64,000 nt of DNA from Candidatus Forterrea multitransposorum CG_2015-17_Forterrea_25_41 (GCA_009392915.1 CP045477.1:96001-160000), one strand, 5' to 3'; shown: positions 19,619 through 62,544, counted from the first letter of the stretch. A program made the numbers and translations. Notes: generated from the letters alone by a model not told the origin.

Positions 19619-19799
19619 TTAGTTGTATTAAATTTCATTTTTCTTTGAGGTTCAATTTCCGCCAGAAGCTTTGCTTTTTAATTTATGTTATTTTAATTTA
19701 TTTTTTATTACTTTTAGAAATAAATCTATTTAAATAGTTTATTTTTATATATATGTATTATTCGCGAATAATGTTGGACAAAAATTTTGAGGTGGTTGT

Positions 19800-20474
19800 G
19801 TGTTTGATATCGCAGATTTTCCAAAATTAGAATCTCCCTTTATAAGAAAAACTATTAATGAAAAATATATAGTAACTTTTGAGATTAATCCTAAATATAA
19901 ATGGATTTTTAATAGAAACATTGTTTTAGCTTCAGAAAAGATAGATGGAACTAATGTTTCAATAATTATAAATAAAGGAAAAATAATTGATATATACAAT
20001 AGAAAAAATAAAATTGAAATATTAGCAAATAAAAAATATTTTAGATTTATAGATGGTATCAACTATGCCTTATATAAAGAATTATTTAGAACAAATAAAT
20101 CTATGCAAATATTTGGAGAATTAATTGGGCCAACAGTTAATGGAAATCCCTATAATGAAGTAAGAAACATATGGGTGCCTTTTTCTTACTTAAAAGAAAA
20201 ATGTGAATTTAAATTTTGGAATAAATTTTTAGAAGAAGAAATTGACGGTAAAGATTTAAGCGAAAAAGAAATATTTGAAAAAACATCAAATATTTTTAAA
20301 AATCTTTGGAGTCTTTATTATAGAAGAAAAACAGGCGAAAAGATATTTGCTGAAGGAATTGTATTTTATAATAAAGAAACTGGAGAGATGTGTAAACTAA
20401 GAAGAGATATGTTTGATTGGTATGAAGGAATTAGTCATGATTTTTTTAAAGCTAAAGCAAAAAAAGATCTATAA
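19800..20474 (+). CDS. minimal ATP-dependent RNA ligase (Rnl2/PF09414-like adenylyltransferase domain only)
   Basis: Nucleotidyltransferase motifs in order: I EKIDGTN, III FGELIG, IV AEGIVFY, V CKLRR. 224 aa, no extra C-terminal domain. GTG start with GAGGTGG SD. Confidence 0.6.
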   Translation: MFDIADFPKLESPFIRKTINEKYIVTFEINPKYKWIFNRNIVLASEKIDGTNVSIIINKGKIIDIYNRKNKIEILANKKYFRFIDGINYALYKELFRTNKSMQIFGELIGPTVNGNPYNEVRNIWVPFSYLKEKCEFKFWNKFLEEEIDGKDLSEKEIFEKTSNIFKNLWSLYYRRKTGEKIFAEGIVFYNKETGEMCKLRRDMFDWYEGISHDFFKAKAKKDL

Positions 20475-42900: not shown

Positions 42901-44823
42901 ATGATTAAAATTGATATAAATAATTTAGATTATGAAAAACTAGGCCTTATGTGTGGTCTTGAATTACATCAACAGTTAAACACAAATAAACTTTTTTGTA
43001 ATTGTCCTTCAAAATTAATTAATGATGATTTAAAGCCAGATAAAGTAATCCATAGACAATTAAGAGCAGTTTCTTCAGAGACTGGAGATTTAGATGTTAC
43101 TGCAAAAGAAGAACAAGATAAAAATAAAATTTTTAAATATCTTTTTTATAATTCTTGTAATTGTTTAGTTGAAACAGATTCACAACCTCCTTTAAATATT
43201 AATAAAGATGCTTTAAATATTGCTTTAGTTGTTTCTTTTTTAACAAATTCAGTTGTTGTAAATACTTCTCATGTTATGAGAAAACAAGTAATTAATGGTT
43301 CTAATGTTTCTGGTTTTCAGAGAACTACAATGATTTCAACTGATGGTTATCTTGATTTTAGTTTTGGAAAAGTAAGAATTGATAAAATTCTTTTAGAAGA
43401 AGATGCTGCTAGAACAATTGAAAAAACTGATTCTATTGTAACTTATTCTTTAGATAGGCTTGGTATTCCTTTAATAGAATTAGTTGCATGGCATGATATG
43501 CACACTCCTGAACAAGTTAAAGAAGTTGCATTATATCTTGGACAAATGTTTCGAAGTACTGGTAAAACTAAAAGAGGTTTAGGTTCAATCAGACAAGACA
43601 TTAATATTTCTATTAAAGATGGTTCTAGAGTAGAGATTAAAGGTTGTCAAGATCTTGATTTAATTCCAGAGATTGTTAATAGAGAGATTGTTCGTCAATT
43701 AAATTTAATAGATATTAAAAAAGAAGTTATTGAAAAAAATCTTACTTCATTTTCTTTAAAACCTATTATGATTAATGATTATTTTAAGCAAACTGATTCT
43801 AAAGTTGTTTTAAAATCTTTTTCAGAAAATAAAAATGCTTATTTATTTTTACTTCCTGGATTTAAGGGTTTTTTAGGTAGAGAAATTCAACCAAACAGAA
43901 GACTTGGAACTGAAATTGCAAGTGTTTTAAAAATGAGAACTACTCTAAAAGGTCTTTTCCATTTAGATGAACTTCCAAATTATGGTATTACAGAAAAAGA
44001 AGTTAATTTAATTAAAAAAGATTTTTCTGTTAAAGAAAATGATTCCTTTATAATTATTTTTTCTTCTGAAAATGAAATTTCTTCAGTTAAAAATGTAATT
44101 GAAGATAGACTTAATAAACTTAAAGACGGGGTTTTAAAAGAAACTAGAGCTTCAACTGTTGAAGGAAATACAGAATATCAAAGACCTCTTTCAACTTCTT
44201 CAAGAATGTATCCTGAAACTGATCTTTCACCAATTGTTTTTAATGAAGAATTATTAGCTTTAGCTAAAAAAGAAGTTCCTTTATCTTTAGAAGATAGAAA
44301 AAAATTATATGTTGATACTTTTAAACTAAGTTCACAACTTGCAGATAAAATGAAACTTAATAATTTTGCACCAATTTTTGAAAAAATAGTTTCTGAATAT
44401 AAAATTAATCCTACAACTCTTTCAGTATTTTTACTTGAAGATTTAATTAAAGCTTCAAGAGAAGGAGTTTTAGATCTTGATGATGTTAATGATTCTTTAT
44501 TAATTAATTTTTTTAAAACAAAAGATTTGTTTAACAGAATTAATAAAAATAAACTTTTAGATGTCTTTATTGAATTTTTAAAAAATCCTCTTGATTTAGA
44601 AAGAATTATTCAAGAAAATAAAAAAGAGGATTTATCTTTTGATGTATTAACTAATATTATTGATCAAGTAATAGATGAAAATAAAGATTTTATTTTAAAA
44701 CAAAAAGAAAGATCTTTAGGTTTATTGATGGGAAGAGTAATGTCTAAAACTGAAAATAAATATGATGGGAAAATTATTTCTCAAACAATTAAAGAAAGAT
44801 TAAATCTTTTTTTAAAAAATTAA
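42901..44823 (+). CDS. gatE: Glu-tRNA(Gln) amidotransferase subunit E
   Basis: MCGLELHQQL...KLFC.CP..., ..NVSGFQRT.., ..GSIRQDINISI.. GatB/GatE core with the archaeal insertion domain. 640 aa. Confidence 0.9.
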   Translation: MIKIDINNLDYEKLGLMCGLELHQQLNTNKLFCNCPSKLINDDLKPDKVIHRQLRAVSSETGDLDVTAKEEQDKNKIFKYLFYNSCNCLVETDSQPPLNINKDALNIALVVSFLTNSVVVNTSHVMRKQVINGSNVSGFQRTTMISTDGYLDFSFGKVRIDKILLEEDAARTIEKTDSIVTYSLDRLGIPLIELVAWHDMHTPEQVKEVALYLGQMFRSTGKTKRGLGSIRQDINISIKDGSRVEIKGCQDLDLIPEIVNREIVRQLNLIDIKKEVIEKNLTSFSLKPIMINDYFKQTDSKVVLKSFSENKNAYLFLLPGFKGFLGREIQPNRRLGTEIASVLKMRTTLKGLFHLDELPNYGITEKEVNLIKKDFSVKENDSFIIIFSSENEISSVKNVIEDRLNKLKDGVLKETRASTVEGNTEYQRPLSTSSRMYPETDLSPIVFNEELLALAKKEVPLSLEDRKKLYVDTFKLSSQLADKMKLNNFAPIFEKIVSEYKINPTTLSVFLLEDLIKASREGVLDLDDVNDSLLINFFKTKDLFNRINKNKLLDVFIEFLKNPLDLERIIQENKKEDLSFDVLTNIIDQVIDENKDFILKQKERSLGLLMGRVMSKTENKYDGKIISQTIKERLNLFLKN

Positions 44824-46443: not shown

Positions 46444-46518
46444 GGGAGTGTAGCTTAGTCTGGTTGGAGCACTCGACTGATAATCGAGAGGCCGCAGGTT
46501 CGAATCCTGCCATTCCCA
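46444..46518 (+). tRNA. tRNA-Ile (anticodon GAU)
   Basis: Acceptor GGGAGTG/CATTCCC, anticodon stem CTCGA/TCGAG, loop CTGATAA, T arm GCAGG-TTCGAAT-CCTGC, discriminator A. TTTATAAATT box about 20 nt upstream. Confidence 0.9.
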
Positions 46519-46559
46519 CTTTCTATTTTTATATAGATTTTAAAAAAAGAGGATAATTT

Positions 46560-49450: not shown

Positions 49451-49525
49451 GGAAGTGTAGCTTAGTCTGGTTAGAGCATTGGTCTTATACACCAAAGGTC
49501 GCAGGTTCGAATCCTGCCATTTCCA
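49451..49525 (+). tRNA. tRNA-Ile (anticodon UAU)
   Basis: Acceptor GGAAGTG/CATTTCC, anticodon stem TTGGT/ACCAA, loop CTTATAC (UAU), T arm GCAGG-TTCGAAT-CCTGC. D and T arms almost identical to tRNA-Ile(GAU) at 46444. Confidence 0.85.
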
Positions 49526-49582
49526 CTTTTTTTTAAAAATAAAGCTTTATAAATCTAATTAACTACTATATATTAGATAATT

Positions 49583-51061: not shown

Positions 51062-52408
51062 ATGATTGAACCAAACACATTTTTTTTAATATTTTCAGCA
51101 ATTTTTTTAATTGCTTTTTTTGGAAATCTTTTTTTTAAAAAGACAAGATTTTCAGATATTTCTATTCTTTTAATCATCGGTTTTTTAATTGGTTCTGTGT
51201 TTAACATTATTACCAATTCTCAACTTGAAATTTTAAAAAGTATGTCTTCTTTATTTGGTTCTTTAGCTTTAATTATTATTCTTTTTGAAGGTGGACTTCA
51301 TCTTAATTTTTATAAAGTTTTAAGAGAGATTGGAAAAGCTACAATGTTTACAATTGCAGTTTTCTTTTTTACAGTTCTTTTCTCTGGAGTTTTACTTCAT
51401 TATATTTTTTCAATACCTGCAATTTATGCACTTTTAATTGGTTCTGCAATTGGAGGTGTAAGTTCTGCTGTGGTAATTCCTTTAGTTATGAACTCTAAAT
51501 CTAAAGAAGAAACTAAAACTTTAATTACTTTAGAGTCTGCAATTACTGATGTTTTGTGTATTATTGTCTTTATAACTCTTTTTGAAATAATTGTGACTCA
51601 AAAATCAAGTATTCAGTTTGTTACTCAAAATATAATTTCTGCATTTGCAATTGCAACTGTTATAGGTGCAGTTTCAGGAATTGTTTGGACAAAGGTTTTA
51701 AGAGATTTTAATGTTATTAGAAAATTTAATTATCTTTTAACTCTTTCTTTTTTATTTTTAATTTATGTTTTAATTGAATATGCAAAAGGAAATGGAGCTT
51801 TTGGAGTTTTAATCTTTGGTTTAGTTTTAGGTAATTCTAATGAAATTTTAAAAATATTTAAAATGAAAACTTTAAGTCTTGATAATGTTGTTAGTTTAAA
51901 TGAAGTTTATAAGTTTCAAGCAGAAATTAGTTTATTTATTAAAGCATTTTTCTTTATTTATTTAGGACTTATAATTGATCTTTCTTCTGTAACTTTAAAT
52001 ATTATTTTAATTTCTGCAGTTTTAATTTTTGTATCAATTGCTTCTAGGTATTTATCCATTTATATATTTTCTGGAGATAAGACAATTAAGCAAGATACAA
52101 GATATATTTTATCTCTTCATGCAAGAGGACTTGCTGCTGCTGTTTTAGGTACTTATCCAATTGCTATGGGTCTTGTAAACAATTATACTTTAATCCTTTT
52201 ACCAATAACTTTCCTTGTAATCTTTTTAACAAATATTACAACTACTTTTATGTTTTTCTTTACAGAAAGAAATAAACTTAAGGAAGAGTCTTTAAATGAA
52301 GAATCTTCAGAAAAAGATTCTTCTCAGGAAGAAGAAACTAATCCTTATAGTTTAATTAAAAAATCTAATAAAAATAAAGATTCTAAAGAAAAAATAGATG
52401 ATAATTAA
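51062..52408 (+). CDS. cation:proton antiporter (Na+/H+ exchanger family, CPA1/NhaP-like)
   Basis: About 12 TM helices, LFEGGLHL.. and ..ESAITDVLCI.. motifs typical of PF00999. Hydrophilic K/E/S tail. Confidence 0.7.
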   Translation: MIEPNTFFLIFSAIFLIAFFGNLFFKKTRFSDISILLIIGFLIGSVFNIITNSQLEILKSMSSLFGSLALIIILFEGGLHLNFYKVLREIGKATMFTIAVFFFTVLFSGVLLHYIFSIPAIYALLIGSAIGGVSSAVVIPLVMNSKSKEETKTLITLESAITDVLCIIVFITLFEIIVTQKSSIQFVTQNIISAFAIATVIGAVSGIVWTKVLRDFNVIRKFNYLLTLSFLFLIYVLIEYAKGNGAFGVLIFGLVLGNSNEILKIFKMKTLSLDNVVSLNEVYKFQAEISLFIKAFFFIYLGLIIDLSSVTLNIILISAVLIFVSIASRYLSIYIFSGDKTIKQDTRYILSLHARGLAAAVLGTYPIAMGLVNNYTLILLPITFLVIFLTNITTTFMFFFTERNKLKEESLNEESSEKDSSQEEETNPYSLIKKSNKNKDSKEKIDDN

Positions 52409-52414
52409 AAATCT

Positions 52415-52474
52415 ATTCCTTTATAAATATTTTGTATCTATAAAATATTTATGACTTACAATAATACTTTAAGT
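52415..52474 (+). promoter_or_regulatory. shared ~58-nt promoter/leader element, copy A (upstream of ileS)
   Basis: ATTCCTTTATAAATATTTTG (52415-52434) is identical to 55743-55762. Downstream blocks AATATTTATG and CAA(T)AATACTTT are also shared. Contains TATA box TTTATAAATA at 52420-52429, about 175 nt before the ATG. Confidence 0.5.
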
Positions 52475-52527
52475 TTTTATAAAGATAACTTAATTTCTAT
52501 AATTATAAGTATTATTATATATTGATA

Positions 52528-52603
52528 GGCAAAGATTAACCTTCATTCTAATTTTAATCTTTTGCCAAAATTTTAAGCTTTAAAGGTAGGTGGGCAAAAA
52601 TTA
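52528..52603 (+). promoter_or_regulatory. ileS leader hairpin with alternative pairing onto the SD/start region
   Basis: GGCAAAGATTAA (52528-52539) pairs with TTAATCTTTTGCC (52554-52566), 12 bp with one bulge. The nearly identical GGCAAAAATTA (52593-52603) overlaps the spacer and start codon and could pair with the same 3' arm. Confidence 0.35.
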
Positions 52604-55443
52604 TGTTTTCAAATCAAAATGAAAAAGAAATAAAAGAGTTTTGGGAAAAAAATAATATTCCTAAAAAAGTAAGAGAAAAAGAGTCTGATAAACATTATTA
52701 TTTTATAGACGGACCTCCATATGCAACAGGTTCTATTCATTTAGGAACTGCAATGAACAGGATCTTAAAAGATATTCTTTATAGGTTTAAAAGACAAGAA
52801 GGTTTTAAGGTTTTAGACATTCCTGGTTTTGATACTCATGGTGTGCCAATAGAACGTAAGGTGCAAAAAAAATATGATTTAAAATCAAAAGAAGATATTG
52901 AAGCTTTTGGTATTGAAAAATTTTCAAAAGAATGTCATGCATTTGCAACTAAACACATCTCTGAAATGTCAAAAGATATTTATGATTTAGGACAATGGAT
53001 GGATTGGGAAAATCCATATAGAACTTTAGATCAAACCTATATGCAATCTGCTTGGTGGACTTTTAAAAAAGCTTTTGATAAAGGTCTTTTATTTCATGAC
53101 AAATATCCTATCCATGTCTGTCCTGATTGTGAAACTTCAGTTTCTTTTAATGAAATTGAATATCAAGATTTAACTGATCTTTCAATTTTTGTTTCCTTAC
53201 AATCAAAAGAAGATTCTTCTCTTTTCTTTGTTATTTGGACAACAACTCCATGGACTCTACCTGCAAACATGGCAATCATGGTTCACCCTAAATATACATA
53301 TGTTGAGCTTATCTCAAACAATAAAAAATATATTGTTGCAAAAGATTTATCTGAAAAATTAATAAAAGAATTTAATTTTGAAAACTATACTTTAGGTAAA
53401 GAATATTTAGGAGAAGAACTTGTAGGTAAAGAATATCTTCCTGTTCTAGGAGAATGGTTAAATCTTCCTGAAGATTATACAAAAAATGCATATAAAATAA
53501 TCTCTTCAGCAAGACATGTAAACCTAGAAGACGGTTCTGGTTTAGTTCATTGTGCTCCAGGACATGGTAAAGAAGATTATCAAGTTGGAAGAGAATTTAA
53601 TATTCCTATATTTTCTCCGGTTACAATGTCAGGTGAGTATGATGATTCTGTTTCTTTTGGAAAAGGAAAAAAAGTTAAAGAACTTGATTTAGATATAATG
53701 AAATATTTACATGAAAAAGAATGTATCTTAGCTAAAAGAAAAGTAAAACATAGTTACCCTACATGTTGGAGATGTCATAATCCTTTAATAATGGTATCTT
53801 TACCTCAGTGGTTTTTAAGAATTGAAGATTTAAAACCAAGACTTGTAGAACTTAATGAAAGTGAAGTTTCTTGGCATCCTTCTTGGGGAAAAGATAGATT
53901 TTCAAACTGGCTTAAAAATTTATCTGATTGGCCAATTTCAAGAGCAAGATATTGGGGAACTCCTGTTCCTATTTGGAAATGTGATAACTGTGAAAAAATA
54001 CATGTCTTTGAGTCTTTAGAAGATTTAAAGAAAAAAGCTCCTGAAGTAGATTTAAATATGGATATTCATAAACCATTTATTGACAAAATAGAAATTACTT
54101 GTGATTGTGGAACAAAGGTGAAAAGAATTCCAGAAGTATTTGATGTTTGGTTTGATTCTGGTGTTGCATCATGGGCATCTTTAGGTTATCCTTTCAAAAA
54201 AGAATTATTTGATAAATATTGGCCAGCAGATGCTAATTTAGAAGGTCCTGATCAAATAAGAGGTTGGTGGAATTCTCAAATAATTGCTTCTGTAATTGCT
54301 TTTGATAAAGTTCCATTTAAACAAATTTCTATGCATGGTATGGTTCTTGCTGGAGATAAAAGAAAGCTTTCTAAATCTGAAGGAAATGATATTCCTTTAA
54401 TTGAAAGATTTTCACAAACTTCAATTGATTACTATAGATATTATTTTGCAAAAGAATTTTCAGGAGAAGACATTGTTTTAGATTCTAAAAAATTTGATGA
54501 AGTTAGAAGAACTTTAAATCTTTTAGAAAATCTTTATAATTTCATTTCTCTTTATGATGAAAAACAAACATTTGTAACTTCTTTAGATGTTTCAAAAGAA
54601 ACTTTACTTGTTGAAGATAAATGGATTCTTTCAAGATTTAATAATCTTTTAAAAAATAGTTATGCAAACTTTTCAACAACTAACTATTCAAAAGTTATAA
54701 ATGATTTTGAAAAATTTTTGCTTGAAGATTTTAGTAGAATATATGTTAAACTTTTAAGAAAAAGAAAAGATGAAAATCATGTTCTTTCATATGTCTTTTC
54801 CTCAAGTTTAATATTGATCTCACCAATAGTTCCTCATTTTACAGAATTCATGTATCAAAAGTTTTCTGTAAAAGAAAAAGAATCTGTGCATTTCTACCAT
54901 AATCCTTTAATCAATGAAAGTTTAATTGATTTAGATCTTGAAAAGAACTTTGACCTTTCTCAAGAAGTTGTAAAAACAGCTCTTTCTTTAAGAGAGGACT
55001 TAAAGAAAAGATTAAGATGGATCTTACCTGAAATGCATGTTGTTTTAAAAGACTTTGAAAAAATATCTATCTTTAAGGAAATTATAGAAGATATGGCAAA
55101 TATTGAAAATGTAAGTTTTTCAAATAATGCTCCTGATAACATGCCTTCAAAAGAAGTTTTAAAAGATGTTTTTGTATACATTAATGAAAACATTGATTCT
55201 TCTTATAAAGAAGTTTGGGAAGTATCAGAGCTTACAAGGCTTATACAGTCTGAGAGAAAGAAACAAAAGTTAAATCCAAATGATAAAGTTTCTTTGAAGA
55301 TATCTTGTAGTGAAAAAGATTTCCTTGTAAAAAATAAACCTAAAATTGAAGATGCAACAAACACTATTCTTGATATCTTGGACGATTTAAGTGAAGACAA
55401 TAAACAAAAGTTAATAGAGAGAGAAGTTTCTTTCTCTTTTTAA
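52603..55443 (+). CDS. ileS: isoleucyl-tRNA synthetase
   Basis: HIGH (PPYATGSIHLGTAMN) and KMSKS (KLSKS) motifs, editing domain, Cys clusters CPDC/CWRCHNP/CDNC/CDCG. 946 aa. Confidence 0.95.
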   Translation: MFSNQNEKEIKEFWEKNNIPKKVREKESDKHYYFIDGPPYATGSIHLGTAMNRILKDILYRFKRQEGFKVLDIPGFDTHGVPIERKVQKKYDLKSKEDIEAFGIEKFSKECHAFATKHISEMSKDIYDLGQWMDWENPYRTLDQTYMQSAWWTFKKAFDKGLLFHDKYPIHVCPDCETSVSFNEIEYQDLTDLSIFVSLQSKEDSSLFFVIWTTTPWTLPANMAIMVHPKYTYVELISNNKKYIVAKDLSEKLIKEFNFENYTLGKEYLGEELVGKEYLPVLGEWLNLPEDYTKNAYKIISSARHVNLEDGSGLVHCAPGHGKEDYQVGREFNIPIFSPVTMSGEYDDSVSFGKGKKVKELDLDIMKYLHEKECILAKRKVKHSYPTCWRCHNPLIMVSLPQWFLRIEDLKPRLVELNESEVSWHPSWGKDRFSNWLKNLSDWPISRARYWGTPVPIWKCDNCEKIHVFESLEDLKKKAPEVDLNMDIHKPFIDKIEITCDCGTKVKRIPEVFDVWFDSGVASWASLGYPFKKELFDKYWPADANLEGPDQIRGWWNSQIIASVIAFDKVPFKQISMHGMVLAGDKRKLSKSEGNDIPLIERFSQTSIDYYRYYFAKEFSGEDIVLDSKKFDEVRRTLNLLENLYNFISLYDEKQTFVTSLDVSKETLLVEDKWILSRFNNLLKNSYANFSTTNYSKVINDFEKFLLEDFSRIYVKLLRKRKDENHVLSYVFSSSLILISPIVPHFTEFMYQKFSVKEKESVHFYHNPLINESLIDLDLEKNFDLSQEVVKTALSLREDLKKRLRWILPEMHVVLKDFEKISIFKEIIEDMANIENVSFSNNAPDNMPSKEVLKDVFVYINENIDSSYKEVWEVSELTRLIQSERKKQKLNPNDKVSLKISCSEKDFLVKNKPKIEDATNTILDILDDLSEDNKQKLIEREVSFSF

Positions 55444-55461
55444 TTTTTTAAGTGATATTTT

Positions 55462-55647
55462 ATGAAATTAATTATAGATTCTAAATTAGATATATCTTTA
55501 AAAGAATGGTCTGAAGGAAAAAAATCTTTAGGAGATGTTTCTAAAGAAAATAATTTATCTATATGTCAAACAATGGAAGAAGCTAAAAAAAGAGGTCTTT
55601 CTTCAAGCATATCTTTAGAAGATATAAAAGATGATTTCAACTTATAA
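55462..55647 (+). CDS. UPF0175-like small protein (orphan antitoxin-like)
   Basis: 61 aa. SLKEWSEGKKSLGDVSKENNLSICQTMEEAKKRGL resembles the UPF0175 core (..Y..G.[IL]SLG.AA.LAG.S...F...L...G[IL]), as does the gene at 58120. Confidence 0.45.
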   Translation: MKLIIDSKLDISLKEWSEGKKSLGDVSKENNLSICQTMEEAKKRGLSSSISLEDIKDDFNL

Positions 55648-55742
55648 AGGTTATTTATAGTTTTTTCTTATATTTTATTTTTAATAATCTTTTTTTAAAT
55701 TAATTTTTATAATTAATAAATATCTTTAAAAGGTTATTTTCA

Positions 55743-55801
55743 ATTCCTTTATAAATATTTTGCTTCTTATTAATATTTATGTATTTCAAAATACTTTTAT
55801 C
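55743..55801 (+). promoter_or_regulatory. shared ~58-nt promoter/leader element, copy B (upstream of the AsnRS-like gene)
   Basis: See copy A. The 20-mer at 55743-55762 is identical, TATA box at 55748-55757, about 235 nt before ATG 55983. Confidence 0.5.
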
Positions 55802-55982
55802 AAAAACAAGATTTTTACAAATCTACTTATTTTCTGTAGTTAACTTTAATCTCCTTTAGAGGGAGAGAATTTAATATTTATCGGTTTATATAATATTTAT
55901 AGTACTTTATTAAAATAAAGTCTAAACATATTTATAGTAATTTTTAAAAAAAATATATTTATAAAAAAGGAGTTAATAATTT

Positions 55983-57287
55983 ATGGAAAAAAAATATTTA
56001 TCAATAAAAGAAGTTTTAGAAAAGAAAGAAGGAGAGGTATCTTTAAGAGGATGGGTACACAGGTTTAGAGACCAAAAGACAACAATCTTTATAACCTTAA
56101 GAGATGTTACAGGGGTAATACAACTTGTGTGTGATCAAGATAAAGTATCTCCAGAGCTTTTTGAAAAAATAAAACAAACAACTATAGAATCATCAATAGT
56201 TGTTTCTGGAACTGTAAGAAAAGAAGAAAGATCTCCTCAAGGTTATGAAATTGATATAAAAGATTATGAGATTGCAGGTCTTGCAGAAACTTATCCAATA
56301 TCAAAAGATTTTTCTGAAGAATTTCTTTTAGATGTAAGACACTTATGGTTAAGATCAAGAAAAATGCAAGCAATCTTAAAAATAAGATCAACTGTCTTTA
56401 GAGCTATTCATGATTATTTTAGAAGTCAAGATTATTATGAATATCAATCTCCAGTTCTTCAGTCAGTTCAATGTGAAGGAGGATCAAGTTTATTTAAGGT
56501 TGATTACTTTGAAAAGAAAGGTGTCTTTTTAGCACAGACATGGCAATTGTATGCAGAGCCAGCTATCTTTTCTTTAGAAAGAATATATACAATCTCTCCA
56601 TCTTTTAGAGCGGAAAAGTCAAAGACAACAAGACATTTAGCTGAATATTGGCATGCAGAGATGGAAGGAGCTTGGGTTTCTTTTGAAGAGTTACAAGAGC
56701 ATGCAGAAGGTTTAATAAAAAAAGTAATCTCTGATGTTTTAAAACACCATAGAGATGATCTTGAAACTTTAAAGAGAGATGTTAAAGTTTTAGAAACTGC
56801 AATTTCAAAACCTTTTGTAAAAATGACATACACCGAAGCTTTAGAGATTTTAAAAAAAGAGCATGACATGCATGTTGAATGGGGAAAAGACCTAAGAACT
56901 GTTGAAGAGGATCTTTTATCTAAAATGTATGATACTTTTATTATTATTACAAGATATCCAAAAGAAGTAAAAGCTTTTTATATGAAAGAAGATCCACAAG
57001 ACCCTAGAGTAGTTTTAGGTTTTGATTGTATCGGTCCTGAAGGTTATGGTGAGATTATAGGTGCAAGTGAAAGAGAGGATGATATTAAAAAAATAGTTGA
57101 AAGACTTGAAAAAGACGGAGAAGATGTCTCACAATATGATTTCTATCTTGACACTAGAAAATATGGTTCTGTCCCTCATTCTGGTTTTGGAATGGGTGTT
57201 GAAAGAATAATCTCTTATATCATAAAAGCTGATACAATAAAGGATGCTATTGCTTTCCCTAGAACAATGGTAAGGTATAGACCTTAA
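55983..57287 (+). CDS. asnS: class IIb aminoacyl-tRNA synthetase, AsnRS-like (Asn/Asp not fully resolved)
   Basis: N-terminal OB anticodon-binding domain. Motif 2 FRAEKSKTTRHLAEYWHAEME is closer to AsnRS FRAENSNTSRHLAEFW than to archaeal AspRS. Motif 3 GFGMGVERII...AFPR. 434 aa. Confidence 0.7.
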   Translation: MEKKYLSIKEVLEKKEGEVSLRGWVHRFRDQKTTIFITLRDVTGVIQLVCDQDKVSPELFEKIKQTTIESSIVVSGTVRKEERSPQGYEIDIKDYEIAGLAETYPISKDFSEEFLLDVRHLWLRSRKMQAILKIRSTVFRAIHDYFRSQDYYEYQSPVLQSVQCEGGSSLFKVDYFEKKGVFLAQTWQLYAEPAIFSLERIYTISPSFRAEKSKTTRHLAEYWHAEMEGAWVSFEELQEHAEGLIKKVISDVLKHHRDDLETLKRDVKVLETAISKPFVKMTYTEALEILKKEHDMHVEWGKDLRTVEEDLLSKMYDTFIIITRYPKEVKAFYMKEDPQDPRVVLGFDCIGPEGYGEIIGASEREDDIKKIVERLEKDGEDVSQYDFYLDTRKYGSVPHSGFGMGVERIISYIIKADTIKDAIAFPRTMVRYRP

Positions 57288-57595: not shown

Positions 57596-58099
57596 ATGTT
57601 AAATAATAAAGTTAATGCTGTAATTGACTCTTCATTTTGGATAAACTTGAGTAGAGTTGATCTTACAAAATATTTATTAGATTATTTTACTATTTATTCT
57701 ACCATAAAAGTAAAAGAAGAACTTTTTGATTTTTACGAAAGAAGAGGTTATTTTTCAAAAGATTCTTATCTTTTTAAGTTATATTTAGAAGCAGATTTTA
57801 TTATTTTAAAAGACCTTAAAGAAATTACTTTAAAAATAAAGCAAGAATTGTCAAAAGATTCTGGAGAGTTATATTCTGCTGCTCTTTTAAAGGAAATTGG
57901 AGGTGTTTTTTTAACAGATGATAAGGGGGCACTTAATTTTTGCAAAAATAATAATCTTTTTGCAATTACTTCTGTTTATTTAATAGTTAGACTTTATAAG
58001 GATAATTTAATATCAAAAGAAAAAGCTAAATTTTCAATTATGCGATTAAAAGGAAAAATAAGTAATATACATATACAATCTGCTTTAAAGGATTTATAG
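57596..58099 (+). CDS. PIN-like nuclease, DUF3368-type toxin
   Basis: N-terminal VIDSSFWINL (acidic PIN site), later ..GELYSAALLKEIG..FLTDDKGA... Directly followed by a UPF0175 gene, the usual partner of DUF3368. Confidence 0.6.
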   Translation: MLNNKVNAVIDSSFWINLSRVDLTKYLLDYFTIYSTIKVKEELFDFYERRGYFSKDSYLFKLYLEADFIILKDLKEITLKIKQELSKDSGELYSAALLKEIGGVFLTDDKGALNFCKNNNLFAITSVYLIVRLYKDNLISKEKAKFSIMRLKGKISNIHIQSALKDL

Positions 58100-58119
58100 T
58101 ATAAAAGGAGGTTTTTAAC

Positions 58120-58476
58120 ATGGTTAAAAAAGATTATAAATTGAAATCTTATAGATTATCTGATAGTTCCTTAAAATTAATATATAATGTTTCTAAAGAA
58201 AAAGATTTGAGTGAATCTGAAGCTTTAAGAATGTTAGTTGACAAAGGGCTTTATGAATATAAGTTAGAGTCAGCAATAAAAACATATTATGATAAAAATT
58301 TAGATTTAACTGCTGGAGCAAAACTTGCTGGTATTTCCAAAAGAGAGTTTATGGAAGAACTTTCAAGAAAAGGGGAAGGTATTAATCTTTCAAAAGAAGA
58401 TTATGATTATTCTAAAAAATCTTTTGAAAAATTATTTGGAAAAACAAAAAAGAAAACTACTCAAAAGCCCAAGTAG
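58120..58476 (+). CDS. UPF0175-family antitoxin-like protein
   Basis: ..AIKTYYDKNLDLTAGAKLAGISKREFMEELSRKGEGI matches the UPF0175 core. The N-terminal part looks RHH-like (KSYRLSDSSLKLI). Confidence 0.6.
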   Translation: MVKKDYKLKSYRLSDSSLKLIYNVSKEKDLSESEALRMLVDKGLYEYKLESAIKTYYDKNLDLTAGAKLAGISKREFMEELSRKGEGINLSKEDYDYSKKSFEKLFGKTKKKTTQKPK

Positions 58477-59905
58477 TTTTTTCTTTAGAATCAAAAAGAA
58501 TAACTCCTTTTTTCTTAAGGTTTATTCTTATGATGTCTGCTTCTTCCCATTTCTTAGAATCTCTTAATTCTTGTCTTTTTAAAATTAATTTTTCAATTTC
58601 TTCAACAGGCATTTTATTTTTTGCTTTATTTTCACTATTACTTTCAAAATTTAAAACTTTAAAAACAAGATTTACTTTTTTCAAAAATTCTAAAATCTGT
58701 GATGCTTCTTCTCTGGTTAATTTTTCTTGATCCATTAGTTTGTTTGTTTCTTTTACAAGGAAAAAGATTTGCGCCCATGCATTTGGTGTGTTAAGATCAT
58801 CATCCATGGCTTTTTCAAAATTAAAGATTGATGTTTCAATAATTTCTTTTGCATAAAACATTTCTTTTTCTTGTTTAACTTCTTGAAGTCTTCTTATATA
58901 GTTGTTTAGGTTTTGTAAAGTTTTTTTAGCATCTAAAATAGATTGTTCTGTATAGTTTTGTGGTTTTCTATAATGTCCTGTTGAGAAAACATATCTAAGT
59001 TCTTCAGCTGTATTTTTCTTTAAAAAGTCTTCAATGGTTATAAAGTTTCCTAAGGATTTTCCCATTTTCTTTCCATCAATTGAAAGCATTGCTGTATGTA
59101 CCCAGTAGTTTACCATCTTATGATTTAAACAACCAAAGTTTTGTGCAATTTCATTTTCATGATGAGGGAAAACATGTTCTATTCCTCCGCCATGAATATC
59201 AAAATTATCTCCAAGATATTTATTACCCATAACTGAACATTCCATGTGCCAACCAGGATAGCCAAGACCCCATGGAGAATTCCATTTCAAGATATGCTCT
59301 GATTTTGCTTTTATCCAAACTGCAAAGTCTGCTGGGTTTTTCTTTTCTTCATCATTTTTAAATCTTGTATCTTTTAAAAGATCTTCAATCTTTCTGTTTG
59401 AAAAAGAACCATATTCTGAATATTTTGAAACATCAAAATAAATTCCATTTTTAGTTTCATATGCAAAACCATTTTCAAGAAGTTTTTTAACCCATTCTAT
59501 TATTTCTGGAACATGTGCTGAGGCTTGTGGTTCTATGTTTGGTCTTGATATTTTTAAATCATCAAAAGCTTTCCACATTCTATGTGAATATTTATAAGCA
59601 AGTTCCATTGGGTGTACTTTTCTTTCTTTTGCTCTTTTTGTCATTTTGTCTTCTCCAGAATCTCCTAAGCCATCATCTGTTAGATGACCAACATCTGTAA
59701 TGTTTCTAACATAGAAAATCTGGTAGTTATGAAAAATTTTAAAATAATTGATTAAAAGATCATAGTAGATATATGACATTGCATGCCCTAAATGAACATC
59801 ATCATAAACAGTTACTCCACACACATATATTTTAAGTAAACCTTTTTCAACAGGTTTAAAGGCTTCTTTTTTTCTTGTAAGTGTGTTGTAGAGTTTTATT
59901 GTCAT
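58457..59905 (-). CDS. cysS: cysteinyl-tRNA synthetase
   Basis: CGVTVYDDVHLGHA (HIGH), KMGKSLGN (KMSKS), ..GGIEHVFPHHENE.. 482 aa. Confidence 0.95.
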   Translation of the reverse strand: MTIKLYNTLTRKKEAFKPVEKGLLKIYVCGVTVYDDVHLGHAMSYIYYDLLINYFKIFHNYQIFYVRNITDVGHLTDDGLGDSGEDKMTKRAKERKVHPMELAYKYSHRMWKAFDDLKISRPNIEPQASAHVPEIIEWVKKLLENGFAYETKNGIYFDVSKYSEYGSFSNRKIEDLLKDTRFKNDEEKKNPADFAVWIKAKSEHILKWNSPWGLGYPGWHMECSVMGNKYLGDNFDIHGGGIEHVFPHHENEIAQNFGCLNHKMVNYWVHTAMLSIDGKKMGKSLGNFITIEDFLKKNTAEELRYVFSTGHYRKPQNYTEQSILDAKKTLQNLNNYIRRLQEVKQEKEMFYAKEIIETSIFNFEKAMDDDLNTPNAWAQIFFLVKETNKLMDQEKLTREEASQILEFLKKVNLVFKVLNFESNSENKAKNKMPVEEIEKLILKRQELRDSKKWEEADIIRINLKKKGVILFDSKEKTTWAFE

Positions 59906-60141: not shown

Positions 60142-62544
60142 ATGCAAAAGAGATTAGGTATTTTAGGTATTTTTTTAATAGTTTTAATGTTTGTTTTTTC
60201 ATCAGGCTTTGTTTTTGCTGAAAATTCATTTGTAAGTTATAGTTCTACTTCAAAAGTAGGTTGGGAAATAACTTCTGCTGAAATTACAAATGATAATATT
60301 GAAATTAATTACATGAATAATCTTGAAGCAAGAGATTCTTGTAAAACAAATGAAAGAACTTTTATGTGGGTTCCTTTTGCAACAGAATATAGAGGTTTGT
60401 TTTTAGTAACTCTTTTTGTTCCTAATAATTTTAATAATGAATCTGGATTTGATTCATTTTTGTATGATAATTTGTCTGACAGAGGAAAAAGTGAAAATGA
60501 AACAGAAGATACTCTTAAAAAATATGAACGATATTTAAAAAGTAATGATCCTACTTTTATGAATTATTTAAATAGTTATGTTAGTGAAGATAAATATTTT
60601 TATATAGTTAAAATTGAAGATGATTTTAAACAAAATAAAAATTATACTCATAATATTGATTTAAGTATGATTAATGAATTAGATAAATTTGGAAAAGTTT
60701 ATATTTATTTATATGATCATTGTGGAAGTTTATCTTCATTTTATCATAATGACTATAAAATTTCTAAAAATCTTGCGAAAGCAGTTTATAATTTTAGTGA
60801 TGGTCAAGAAGAAACTTCTAAAAAAGAAAATGCTACTTCAATAAAATTATCTTCTTCTATTGAAGATAATAAAATAAAATTAGATTCAAATGTTACTGAT
60901 AATGTTAATATTTATTATACATTAGATGATTTTAATTTAGAAAACCATTTTAAATCAAAATTTGTTGAATTTAATTATAATAAAGAAAAAATAAATACTT
61001 ATCTTAAAAGTAATTCTTGGAATATTAATCAATTTGGGGTAAATTTTAAAGTGACTAAATATACTGCACCTGTATCTTTATCTTCTGGACAAAAACTAAA
61101 TGCAATTGCAGTTAATTATGATAATTTTACTTTAAGTAATTATCTTGAAGGAATTACTCTTTCATCTTCTGAAAATTATTCTTCATCTTCTCAAAGCAAT
61201 AATTTTTCAATTAACTTTAAAGAAGATAAAAAAACAGATAATGTGATTTGTGAAAAGGAAACAAAAATTTGTTATGTTAAATTTAATCAAAACATTGATT
61301 TAGATTTAATTGCAAATAAAGTAAATGATGGAAATGTTTATTTTTATATTAATGATATAGAAGGAGATATTGAAAATATTGTAAAAAGCTTATCTTCTCC
61401 TCTTTTAAATATTACACCACCTGCTAAATTAAATGATAATAAACTAAGTTTAGGAAGTAATTTATTCAAATATTCAGATTTAGAAAATTATACTCTAAAT
61501 CTTAATCAAAATGAATCAAAGTTTTTTACTATTAGTGCTTTCCAATTAAATACAAATGTTGATAAGTTATATTTTGTATTTTTACCTGACGAAAACTTTG
61601 AAGATTTAGTAAAATATAAAACTTTACAAAAAATAATAAATTCTGTATATTGTGATGGTTGTAAAATTCCAGATTGGATGCCAAATGGATTAATAATTGA
61701 TAATCAAAATTTATCTACTAGTGATCCTGATCCTTCTACTAGTGATCCTGATCCTTCTACTAGTGATCCAAATTGTAAATATACTGGTGATTTTGAAATT
61801 TTATGTGATTTTCATATCTTTAATTTAGATAAAGATATTGGAAGTAGTTCTATTGATAGTTCAGCAGGAACATTTAGCCCTAAAGAAACATATTATTTAG
61901 AAATTGAATATTTTTATAATGATAAAAAAAATAATTTTAATAAAAATTTAGAAGCTTATAAATTATTTGAATCTGAAAAAAATAATTTTAATCTTACTGA
62001 AAATGAAATTACAATATTTTTTTCAATAATTGGAGGAGAATCCTCTTTTTTAAATGATCAAGCTGGTGATCAAGGAGAATCTATAGGTTTAACTCAAATA
62101 AATAAACCTATATGGAGAACAGAAAGTGGTTTTAATGATCTAAAAGTATATCTTCCAAGTGAAGTTAATACAGTTGAAAAATATTATAAATATTTTGATG
62201 ATTCTAAAAATGATTTAAATAAATCTTTATATTTAGGTCTTGCAGTTTTTAAATATAATTTAAATTATGCTAAAAATAATATTTCTAACTTTAATTCAAA
62301 GTATTCAGATATTGATAGAGCATTTATAATGTTTTACGCACACCAGTTTAATATAAGAGATACAAAAACATTCTTTAATACTGTAAATATTCCTACAGAT
62401 AAAGAAAATGTAATTATTAATTGTGCAGGAACTGGTAATGATTTATTCCAAAATTCTTCTTTAAAGAAACTTGGTTGTGTTGCGACTGTAGGTTCTGTAA
62501 GAAAAATTGGATGGTATCTTAATTACATAAATAATTTAAATTAA
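60142..62544 (+). CDS. secreted 800-aa protein with C-terminal lytic-transglycosylase-like (SLT, PF01464-like) domain
   Basis: Signal peptide LGIFLIVLMFVFSSGFVFA. C-terminal ..IIGGESSFLNDQAGDQGESIGLTQI.. matches the SLT pattern ES.F...A.S..GA.GLMQ. Downstream ..LYLGLAVFKYNL.. and ..FIMFYAHQ.. resemble later SLT helices. An STSDPDP linker precedes it. Confidence 0.55.
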   Translation: MQKRLGILGIFLIVLMFVFSSGFVFAENSFVSYSSTSKVGWEITSAEITNDNIEINYMNNLEARDSCKTNERTFMWVPFATEYRGLFLVTLFVPNNFNNESGFDSFLYDNLSDRGKSENETEDTLKKYERYLKSNDPTFMNYLNSYVSEDKYFYIVKIEDDFKQNKNYTHNIDLSMINELDKFGKVYIYLYDHCGSLSSFYHNDYKISKNLAKAVYNFSDGQEETSKKENATSIKLSSSIEDNKIKLDSNVTDNVNIYYTLDDFNLENHFKSKFVEFNYNKEKINTYLKSNSWNINQFGVNFKVTKYTAPVSLSSGQKLNAIAVNYDNFTLSNYLEGITLSSSENYSSSSQSNNFSINFKEDKKTDNVICEKETKICYVKFNQNIDLDLIANKVNDGNVYFYINDIEGDIENIVKSLSSPLLNITPPAKLNDNKLSLGSNLFKYSDLENYTLNLNQNESKFFTISAFQLNTNVDKLYFVFLPDENFEDLVKYKTLQKIINSVYCDGCKIPDWMPNGLIIDNQNLSTSDPDPSTSDPDPSTSDPNCKYTGDFEILCDFHIFNLDKDIGSSSIDSSAGTFSPKETYYLEIEYFYNDKKNNFNKNLEAYKLFESEKNNFNLTENEITIFFSIIGGESSFLNDQAGDQGESIGLTQINKPIWRTESGFNDLKVYLPSEVNTVEKYYKYFDDSKNDLNKSLYLGLAVFKYNLNYAKNNISNFNSKYSDIDRAFIMFYAHQFNIRDTKTFFNTVNIPTDKENVIINCAGTGNDLFQNSSLKKLGCVATVGSVRKIGWYLNYINNLN
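61714..61770 (+). repeat. perfect 21-nt in-frame tandem repeat (2.7 copies) encoding STSDPDP
   Basis: TCTACTAGTGATCCTGATCCT at 61714-61734 and 61735-61755, then TCTACTAGTGATCCA at 61756-61770. Confidence 0.95.

Follow-up and report, generated by a model that had tools for sequence, protein, structure and literature searches.

The gene for asparagine--tRNA ligase (asnS) in the 64,000-nucleotide stretch of DNA analysed here (the window) is preceded by a short upstream open reading frame (uORF) that carries asparagine codons close to its end and whose stop codon lies in the loop of a predicted RNA hairpin. Conservation of the reading frame, enrichment in cognate codons, covariation in the hairpin and the geometry of the leader are directly supported by the sequences compared. 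The most likely of the explanations considered, and one that we regard as probable, is that the asnS leader acts as a leaderless leader-peptide sensor of the supply of its cognate aminoacyl-tRNA.

The host is a DPANN archaeon of an Iainarchaeum/Diapherotrites-like lineage. The window has a G+C content of ~24% and encodes the archaeal markers aIF5B, aIF2-gamma, a thermosome subunit and GatD/GatE. Among genome records, the best match to its AsnRS was found in a Candidatus Iainarchaeum MAG (89% identity), followed by Diapherotrites-like and other DPANN MAGs. The gene that the original prediction had called asnS-like was identified by NCBIfam models as an asparagine--tRNA ligase gene; its neighbors are listed in Table 1. 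No further aminoacyl-tRNA synthetase (aaRS) genes were found within 10 kb past either end of the window.

Several other features of this neighborhood were recorded. The segment 55462-55740, consisting of the 61-aa ORF and its flank, is missing in L081 (NPID01000025.1), a near-identical strain in which ileS is followed directly by the asnS leader, and other relatives possess different small ORFs of 88-178 aa in its place. The final ileS codons (...EREVSFSF and the stop) make a 9-bp hairpin followed by TTTTTAATTTT (55416-55447), a terminator-like structure that overlaps the stop codon and was the sole such match in 55400-56050 (shuffle mean 0.1); the C-terminal peptide encoded there is similar in relatives. 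On the other side of asnS, the DUF3368 gene is PIN-like and resembles, together with the UPF0175 gene, a toxin-antitoxin pair, and the UPF0175 ORF runs into the 3' end of cysS, which lies on the other strand. An 800-aa ORF (60142-62544) without Pfam or NCBIfam match contains at 61714-61776 an in-frame 21-nt tandem repeat, TCTACTAGTGATCCTGATCCT, in two exact copies and one 81% copy.

Table 1 Features of the asnS and ileS leaders and their surroundings in the window, and Asn-run uORFs in more distant DPANN (positions with locus prefix)
Feature	Position	Strand	Remarks
Na+/H+ exchanger gene	51062-52408		first in the gene order around the asnS leader
ileS-leader sister element	52415-52566	+	20-mer/TATA 52415-52434; uORF 52451-52525; hairpin 52528-52566
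ileS	52603-55443		downstream of the Na+/H+ exchanger gene
61-aa ORF	55462-55647		between ileS and asnS; no Pfam or NCBIfam match
Shared 20-mer, copy B, ATTCCTTTATAAATATTTTG	55743-55762	+	holds TATA box TTTATAAA (55748-55755), the putative distal promoter; exact copy at 52415-52434
Leaderless uORF (predicted leader peptide) MYFKILLSKTRFLQIYLFSVVNFNLL	55779-55859	+	26 codons and TAG stop; kept in 25 leaders
Putative sensor codons AAC TTT AAT (Asn22-Phe23-Asn24)	55842-55850	+	N-[F/I]-N, or at least the last Asn, conserved
Hairpin 1	55850-55866	+	5' arm TCTCCTT corresponds to the last two sense codons; loop is the stop UAG; 3' arm AGGGAGA
U-rich block GAATTTAATATTTATCGGTTTATATAATAT	55867-55896	+	nearly invariant in the window and L001-L003
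Hairpin 2 (ACTTTAT / ATAAAGT)	55904-55921	+	predicted in all folds
Candidate proximal promoter or terminator zone	55928-55945	+	TATA-like CATATTTATAGT, then T5 (55941-55945); putative
asnS Shine-Dalgarno sequence AAGGAG	55967-55972	+	read from sequence; complementary to CTCCTT at 55851-56
asnS (asparagine--tRNA ligase, 434 aa)	55983-57287	+	NCBIfam NF003037 476.6 bits (cut-off 414), TIGR00457 430.3 bits
DUF3368/UPF0175 gene pair	57596-58476		between asnS and cysS
cysS	58457-59905	minus	
L014/L095 asnS uORF MAKISYYLSTASGSRKVFKLLLHNCNNINNLN	L014:5816-5914		ends NNINNLN-stop
L108 asnS uORF ...ISTSSISNNLNNLNNNN	L108:3258-3350		ends NNLNNLNNNN-stop
L049 asnS uORF	L049:5800-5883		ends ...DLVNNN-stop

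The element at 55743 had been described as the second copy of an element shared by aaRS leaders. Indeed, its first 20 nt are an exact copy of a 20-mer in the ileS leader, and the two sites are 80% similar over 50 nt (52412-52461 versus 55740-55789). The 20-mer has exactly two exact matches in the window and a third site with 2 mismatches at 44042; with up to 3 mismatches allowed, 100 dinucleotide shuffles gave a mean of 0.38 matches, and 0/100 reached at least 3. The TATA consensus CTTTATAAATA within the 20-mer is also found at other promoters of the window. The ATG of the asnS uORF follows the TATA box at 23 nt and has no Shine-Dalgarno (SD) sequence ahead of it, and the distance from the 3' end of the TATA box to the uORF ATG was 22-24 nt in the leaders examined. 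Both the spacing and the absent SD match the leaderless geometry at other genes of this genome, several ordinary genes of the window having their ATG 21-23 nt past a TATA-like box. As far as can be read from sequence, the shared element is an archaeal TATA promoter together with the 5' end of a leaderless uORF. The association with aaRS leaders thus stands, whereas the earlier description overlooked the promoter and the 5' end of the uORF, to which the CTCCTT arm and the stop codon also belong. The cysS leader lacks the shared element, as had been noted, and the parallel drawn between the asnS and ileS leaders holds, since both combine the TATA 20-mer with a leaderless uORF containing cognate codons and with a hairpin.

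In the whole window, TATA-preceded intergenic small ORFs occur at 6 start sites (5 distinct ORFs), including the asnS and ileS uORFs. At 19753-19830, a further TATA-preceded small ORF (25 codons, MYYSRIMLDKNFEVVVCLISQIFQN) shares sequence with the SD and GTG start of an RNA-ligase-family gene (19800-20474); we considered it as a related sensor and rejected it as probably incidental, since it lacks cognate-codon logic. In relatives, the TATA-preceded small ORF MWGKQQVSYTITYLGTVAGSESSETFE at L004/L082:12741 has a strong hairpin (-8.1 kcal/mol) immediately past its stop.

To compare the leaders, loci were collected through a scan of genomes, a scan of metagenomes and the look-up of contigs. The ATG-to-stop ORF is kept in 25 distinct asnS leaders of relatives, whose AsnRS are roughly 70-99% identical where measured. 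It is exactly 26 codons long in 17 distinct sequences and 22-25 codons long in the rest of the 25, and the other two frames of the 17 26-codon members carry 1-5 stops each. Examples of the peptides are MIYKIVLEDSDFKSKFCIVINNFNGQ, MIYKTILLKSDVKIIFETSIENFNGP, MIYQTKLEKYYLISRYTVSIKIFNCP, MIYEVKLTISKISTKYSFCIKNFNLR, MIYFTTLQKTESILIFVTSYKNFNR and MCLKNYFDFFKIYLFSNFVFNFP. The uORFs of relatives end in Asn-x-Asn, with a single Asn in some lineages (L010/L089 have one near the end), and the codons at this place vary synonymously (AAC/AAT, TTT/TTC). Only the N-terminal M-[I/Y]-[Y/F]-K and the C-terminal NFN of the peptide are conserved; its centre (residues 8-20) drifts freely, with flat codon-position entropy and no third-position bias. 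Because the Asn and Phe codons change synonymously and the centre is free, this pattern points to a leader peptide and not to a functional protein. The uORF is absent in L013/L094 and L166. In the window's own lineage it contains 2-3 Asn codons only and is far less enriched than the ileS uORF. A hairpin in the middle of the uORF (AGATTT/AAATCT), which seemingly covaries in L001-L003, was discarded, as it is broken in the near-identical strain L081.

The hairpin that had been predicted from TCTCC (55850-54), TTTAGAG (55855-61) and GGAGA (55862-66) is present at this place. RNAfold paired 55850-56 with 55860-66 (7 bp, -7.3 kcal/mol), leaving as the loop the UAG that is the stop codon of the uORF (TAG, 55857-59); the final codons CTC CTT are the arm that had been interpreted as an anti-SD. 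Taken alone, hairpin 1 is not significant (z = -0.7; 47/200 shuffles fold at least as well), and ~9% of 42-nt intergenic windows fold at -7 kcal/mol or below; its significance comes from comparative conservation only. A stop-codon hairpin was predicted in 25/25 distinct asnS leaders and reached -7 kcal/mol or below in 17/20 of the leaders first tabulated. The stems covary: CTCC/GGAG, GGCC/GGCC, GCCC/GGGT, TGCCCT/AGGGTA, TGCC/GGCA, CCCC/GGGG and, in L093, CGCTGA/TCAGCG. In a pair table anchored on the reading frame, position -6 is C-G in 4 leaders, G-C in 13 and U-A in 6, position -5 is U-A in 6, G-C in 14 and G-U in 4, and positions -4 and -3 are C-G in 23/25 and 24/25, respectively. A covariance model of the GGCC group found the GGCC and TGCC variants, missed the CTCC variant of the window and picked up noise. 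The stems tolerate G-U pairs (GGCC/GGTC, TGCCCT/AGGGTA), and the loops vary between 3 and 7 nt (16 nt in L011), which speaks for pairing at the RNA level and against an operator in DNA. Since hairpin 1 is conserved with covariation, we consider it functional.

The ileS leader is the clearer case with respect to codon content. Its leaderless-type uORF has 24 codons (ATG at 52451, stop at 52523) and encodes MTYNNTLSFYKDNLISIIISIIIY, ending ISIIISIIIY before the stop, with 7 Ile in the last 10 codons; a 12-bp hairpin begins 2 nt past the stop. In 11 distinct ileS leaders, a leaderless-type uORF has 5-7 Ile in the last 10 codons (tails ISIIISIIIY, INIFISIIIE, LISIIITIIY, SISIISIIII, IFLNINIIII, IIYIIIGIIYL, CLFISIIIQ, KSISIIII, SIIIGIIII, VSIIFIII and ISISIIIQ), and the hairpins, built on several unrelated stems, start -1 to +6 nt after the stop and fold at -8.5 to -16.4 kcal/mol. 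Two tRNA-Ile genes are present in the window, at 46444-46519 and 49451-49526, with the anticodons GAT and TAT; a tRNA-Ile with the UAU anticodon is unusual in archaea. Both isoacceptors would be sampled by the ileS uORF, whose Ile codons include ATT as well as ATA. The TTTTGCC in the 3' arm of the ileS hairpin can alternatively pair with GGCAAAA (52593-52599), just upstream of the ileS ATG.

The window contains 403 small ORFs; at least 6 Ile among the last 10 codons were counted in none but the ileS uORF, and NFN within the last 5 codons in none but the asnS uORF (1/403). We then counted cognate codons in 18,303 small ORFs of 160 loci and the window. At least 6 Asn in the last 10 codons occurred only directly upstream of asnS (L014/L095 and L108), and most of the ORFs with at least 6 Ile in the last 10 codons were those of ileS leaders. 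More distant DPANN, with AsnRS ~62-63% identical, thus have Asn-run uORFs before asnS that are unrelated in sequence to the 26-codon family; they likewise begin ~22 nt past a TATA box, and a T5-T7 run lies within about 3-20 nt of the stop in L014 and L049 and a T5 at ~17 nt in L108. Because cognate runs recur in unrelated uORFs, it is the codons read by the ribosome that are likely to be the sensor, and we consider this the strongest argument for the proposal. Small ORFs with runs of Leu, Lys, Phe, Arg or Ser were rejected as further candidates: those inspected had no TATA box in the 40 nt upstream and no link to a synthetase, and they look like out-of-frame coding sequence.

In the mechanism that we favor, the TATA box at 55748-55755 would give rise to a leaderless transcript with ATG 55779 as its first codon, opening the 26-codon leader ORF. 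We infer both the start at this ATG and the translation of the ORF. When Asn-tRNA(Asn) is scarce, an Asn codon would occupy the A site of a stalled ribosome. Counted from either Asn codon in the A site, the 5' arm of hairpin 1 lies 3-9 nt downstream, and the footprint of a stalled ribosome would extend ~12-13 nt past that site; since the 5' arm falls inside the ribosome, stalling would hold it single-stranded and keep hairpin 1 open. With ample supply, the ribosome would terminate and depart, and hairpin 1 would re-form. The state of hairpin 1 and the stalled ribosome together would set the level of asnS, at transcription or translation. The most likely route would be control of read-through at the U-rich block and at hairpin 2 with its T-run; freeing of the SD AAGGAG from CTCCTT would be a possible second route in this sub-lineage. 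In the preferred version, a parked ribosome would block hairpin-dependent pausing or termination (SD masking in some lineages), so that more synthetase would be made when charged tRNA is short. This direction, in which a stall raises expression, would follow from the need for negative feedback. As the 5' arm is likewise covered while a ribosome terminates, only the dwell time would distinguish the stalled from the unstalled state. The ileS leader would work in the same way through its run of Ile codons; there, stalls reach the stem only at the last Ile codons.

What follows hairpin 1 bears on the output. The U-rich block has a counterpart in the CUACUUUAUUUAUC block of the GGCC group, and relatives have at the place of hairpin 2 a hairpin of other sequence, followed in most of them by a T-run. 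The T5 of the window lies 20 nt past hairpin 2. In the proximal zone, close relatives conserve an ATATTTnTA block, and TTTTTAATATATTTG is invariant in 6/7 aligned GGCC-group leaders, with a near-identical block in L013, which has no uORF. The caveat attached to the original prediction, that a TATA-like box close to the gene might start a shorter transcript, was thus reasonable: a conserved TATA-like block stands ~45-55 nt before asnS, also in relatives without uORF. We conclude that asnS probably also has its own promoter, and because the block persists in L013, it may be transcribed mainly from there. Folding with ribosome masks (stalled versus at the stop) revealed no consistent antiterminator, hairpin 2 being unchanged in nearly all leaders, and no consistent opening of the SD; with the ileS leaders, 8/11 changed in the expected direction, which is not significant. 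A run of T5 or longer within 30 nt of hairpin 1 was present in 36% of leaders versus 28% of intergenic windows, barely above background, and no such run follows hairpin 1 within 30 nt in the window. Rules for termination in archaea differ from those in bacteria.

The original prediction had proposed a pure RNA switch, in which CTCCTT has two alternative partners, the GGAG decoy close by and the SD AAGGAG, and leader translation has no role. The complementarity on which it was built is real: CTCCTT (55851-56) is the exact complement of AAGGAG (55967-72) ahead of the asnS ATG at 55983, the duplex reaches -9.9 kcal/mol, as good as only 3/39 control ribosome-binding sites (RBSs), and the triad of CTCCTT, GGAG and AAGGAG holds in the immediate relatives L001-L003. 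CCUU-like, SD-complementary 5' arms recur in L010 (-8.1 kcal/mol), L090 (L090/L164; -7.7 kcal/mol) and L163 (-7.8 kcal/mol). However, complementarity to a GGAG-type SD comes trivially with every CTCC/GGAG stem, and the triad fails as a general rule, because neither the largest group of relatives, with GGCC/GGCC stems, nor L093, with CGCTGA/TCAGCG, shows SD complementarity. In the GGCC group, the most populous one (SD GGAAGTGA), the best duplex between the sensor and the RBS has -4.2 kcal/mol, no better than with unrelated RBSs, and the energies of this group and L093 (-4.2 to -4.5 kcal/mol) equal background, so a signal above control RBSs is confined to CCUU-type stems. SD pairing is thus not a conserved principle of these leaders, and SD masking may be a local add-on in some lineages. 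An RNA switch of this kind would also leave unexplained the ATG, the open frame with its fixed length, the Asn codons and the stop in the loop, and no trigger was proposed for it; we consider it quite unlikely. More serious, if still improbable, is the possibility that the 26-codon ORF forms a separate small unit, a micro-protein or dual-function small RNA that ends at hairpin 2 and the T-run, and is linked to asnS by synteny only. Hairpin 2, the T-run and the conserved TATA-like box all lie between the uORF and asnS, and the box in L013 exists without a uORF, as such a unit would have it. The peptide, however, is unconstrained in the middle, and the residues of the uORFs match the downstream synthetase, in the ileS leaders as well as in the distant Asn-run ORFs; moreover, the ileS leaders have only about 25-90 nt from the hairpin to the start codon, with no obvious second promoter between the two.

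The fixed length of 26 codons and the conserved ends of the peptide would also suit a nascent-peptide arrest of the TnaC or SpeFL type, in which the peptide in the exit tunnel senses free asparagine or another ligand and the ribosome stalls at or near the stop; the Pro-stop ending in L005, L010, L163 and L165 fits this as well. Against such an arrest stand the free variation of residues 8-20 and the lack of third-position bias, and the ileS and distant asnS uORFs have no peptide motif in common apart from the cognate runs; we consider it very unlikely. Least credible of all is a DNA element, in which AACTTTAAT would serve as a weak TATA box inside the uORF and the GC-rich palindrome would be a repressor operator between this box and a start near the TATTTATC motif. 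In its favor, a hand count in L004 places TTTAAT ~26-27 nt ahead of the ATC in the conserved TTTATC motif, yet TTTAAT varies (TTCAAT, ATTAAT) while the Asn codon stays, and an operator of fixed spacing would not be expected to have the G-U pairs and variable loops of hairpin 1. We retain the sensing of aminoacyl-tRNA supply by a translating ribosome as the preferred explanation.

Leader peptides that control amino acid and synthetase genes are well known from bacteria. In pheST (pheM) and the trp, his, leu and ilv attenuators, an SD-led leader ORF is followed by four segments, whose mutually exclusive pairings give antiterminator or terminator hairpins, and then by a U-tract. The asnS leader shares with them the short leader ORF and the cognate-codon enrichment, and with the E. 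coli pheST leader in particular the position of a short, cognate-codon-rich ORF before a synthetase gene, with hairpins between the two; in contrast, the mutually exclusive pairing that defines classical attenuators is not detectable in the asnS leaders. In E. coli pyrBI, the ribosome occludes the terminator hairpin, and UTP is sensed via pausing of RNA polymerase, not via aminoacyl-tRNA supply. As in the asnS leader, a single hairpin overlaps the end of the leader ORF and its formation is blocked by a seated ribosome; unlike pyrBI, the window has no clear U-tract after hairpin 1. T-box riboswitches, which are bacterial and the usual control of aaRS genes in Firmicutes, serve the same purpose of matching synthetase expression to tRNA charging, but the asnS leader has no specifier loop and its sensor would be the ribosome instead of direct binding of tRNA. 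A search of the whole window with Rfam gave only four tRNAs at the gathering threshold and no T-box; in 55640-56000, no match appeared even at E up to 1. Synthetases of the E. coli thrS type regulate their own synthesis through a tRNA-mimic operator; the asnS leaders show no such mimicry in their hairpin loops, which are variable and hold the stop codon, not the Asn anticodon GUU.

By analogy, the closest known system appears to be that of mycobacteria, where leaderless poly-Cys small ORFs (sORFs) serve as attenuators (the 'Cys ribulon', Canestrari et al., bioRxiv 10.1101/834739). There, too, a leaderless sORF forms the first cistron and contains codons for the relevant amino acid, and it is proposed that the leader RNA changes its structure when a ribosome stalls; these sORFs are bacterial, belong to operons of Cys metabolism, and were shown to act through unmasking of the SD by the stalled ribosome (bioRxiv 10.1101/834739). 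In contrast, the asnS and ileS leaders are archaeal, their targets are synthetases, SD complementarity is unconserved, and the hairpin lies over or just past the stop. The predicted asnS sensor is an archaeal variant of leader-peptide regulation in which the alternative terminator/antiterminator pairing of the classical family is not detectable and the SD pairing of the mycobacterial family is not conserved.

We found neither an archaeal leader-peptide attenuator nor cis-regulation of archaeal aaRS genes described in the full-text literature available without subscription. If our proposal is true, such leaders would be, as far as we found, the first leader-peptide attenuators described in archaea, and no mechanism of cis-regulation would have been proposed earlier for archaeal aaRS genes; to our knowledge, it is essentially unknown how archaea match synthetase levels to tRNA charging. 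It would also mean that ribosome-stalling sensors operate on leaderless archaeal mRNAs, which has a bearing on transcription-translation coupling and termination in archaea. The wider proposition, to which we give an even chance, is that archaea, or at a minimum several DPANN lineages, use ribosome-mediated leader-peptide attenuation, with leaderless cognate-codon mini-ORFs and stop-codon hairpins forming a small aaRS regulon (ileS, asnS and possibly more). In the loci examined, ORFs of this type, 17-31 codons long, had not been called as genes, so that comparable sensors may often escape notice. Their existence would reveal regulation in host-dependent DPANN cells that have genomes of ~0.66 Mb and few transcription factors.
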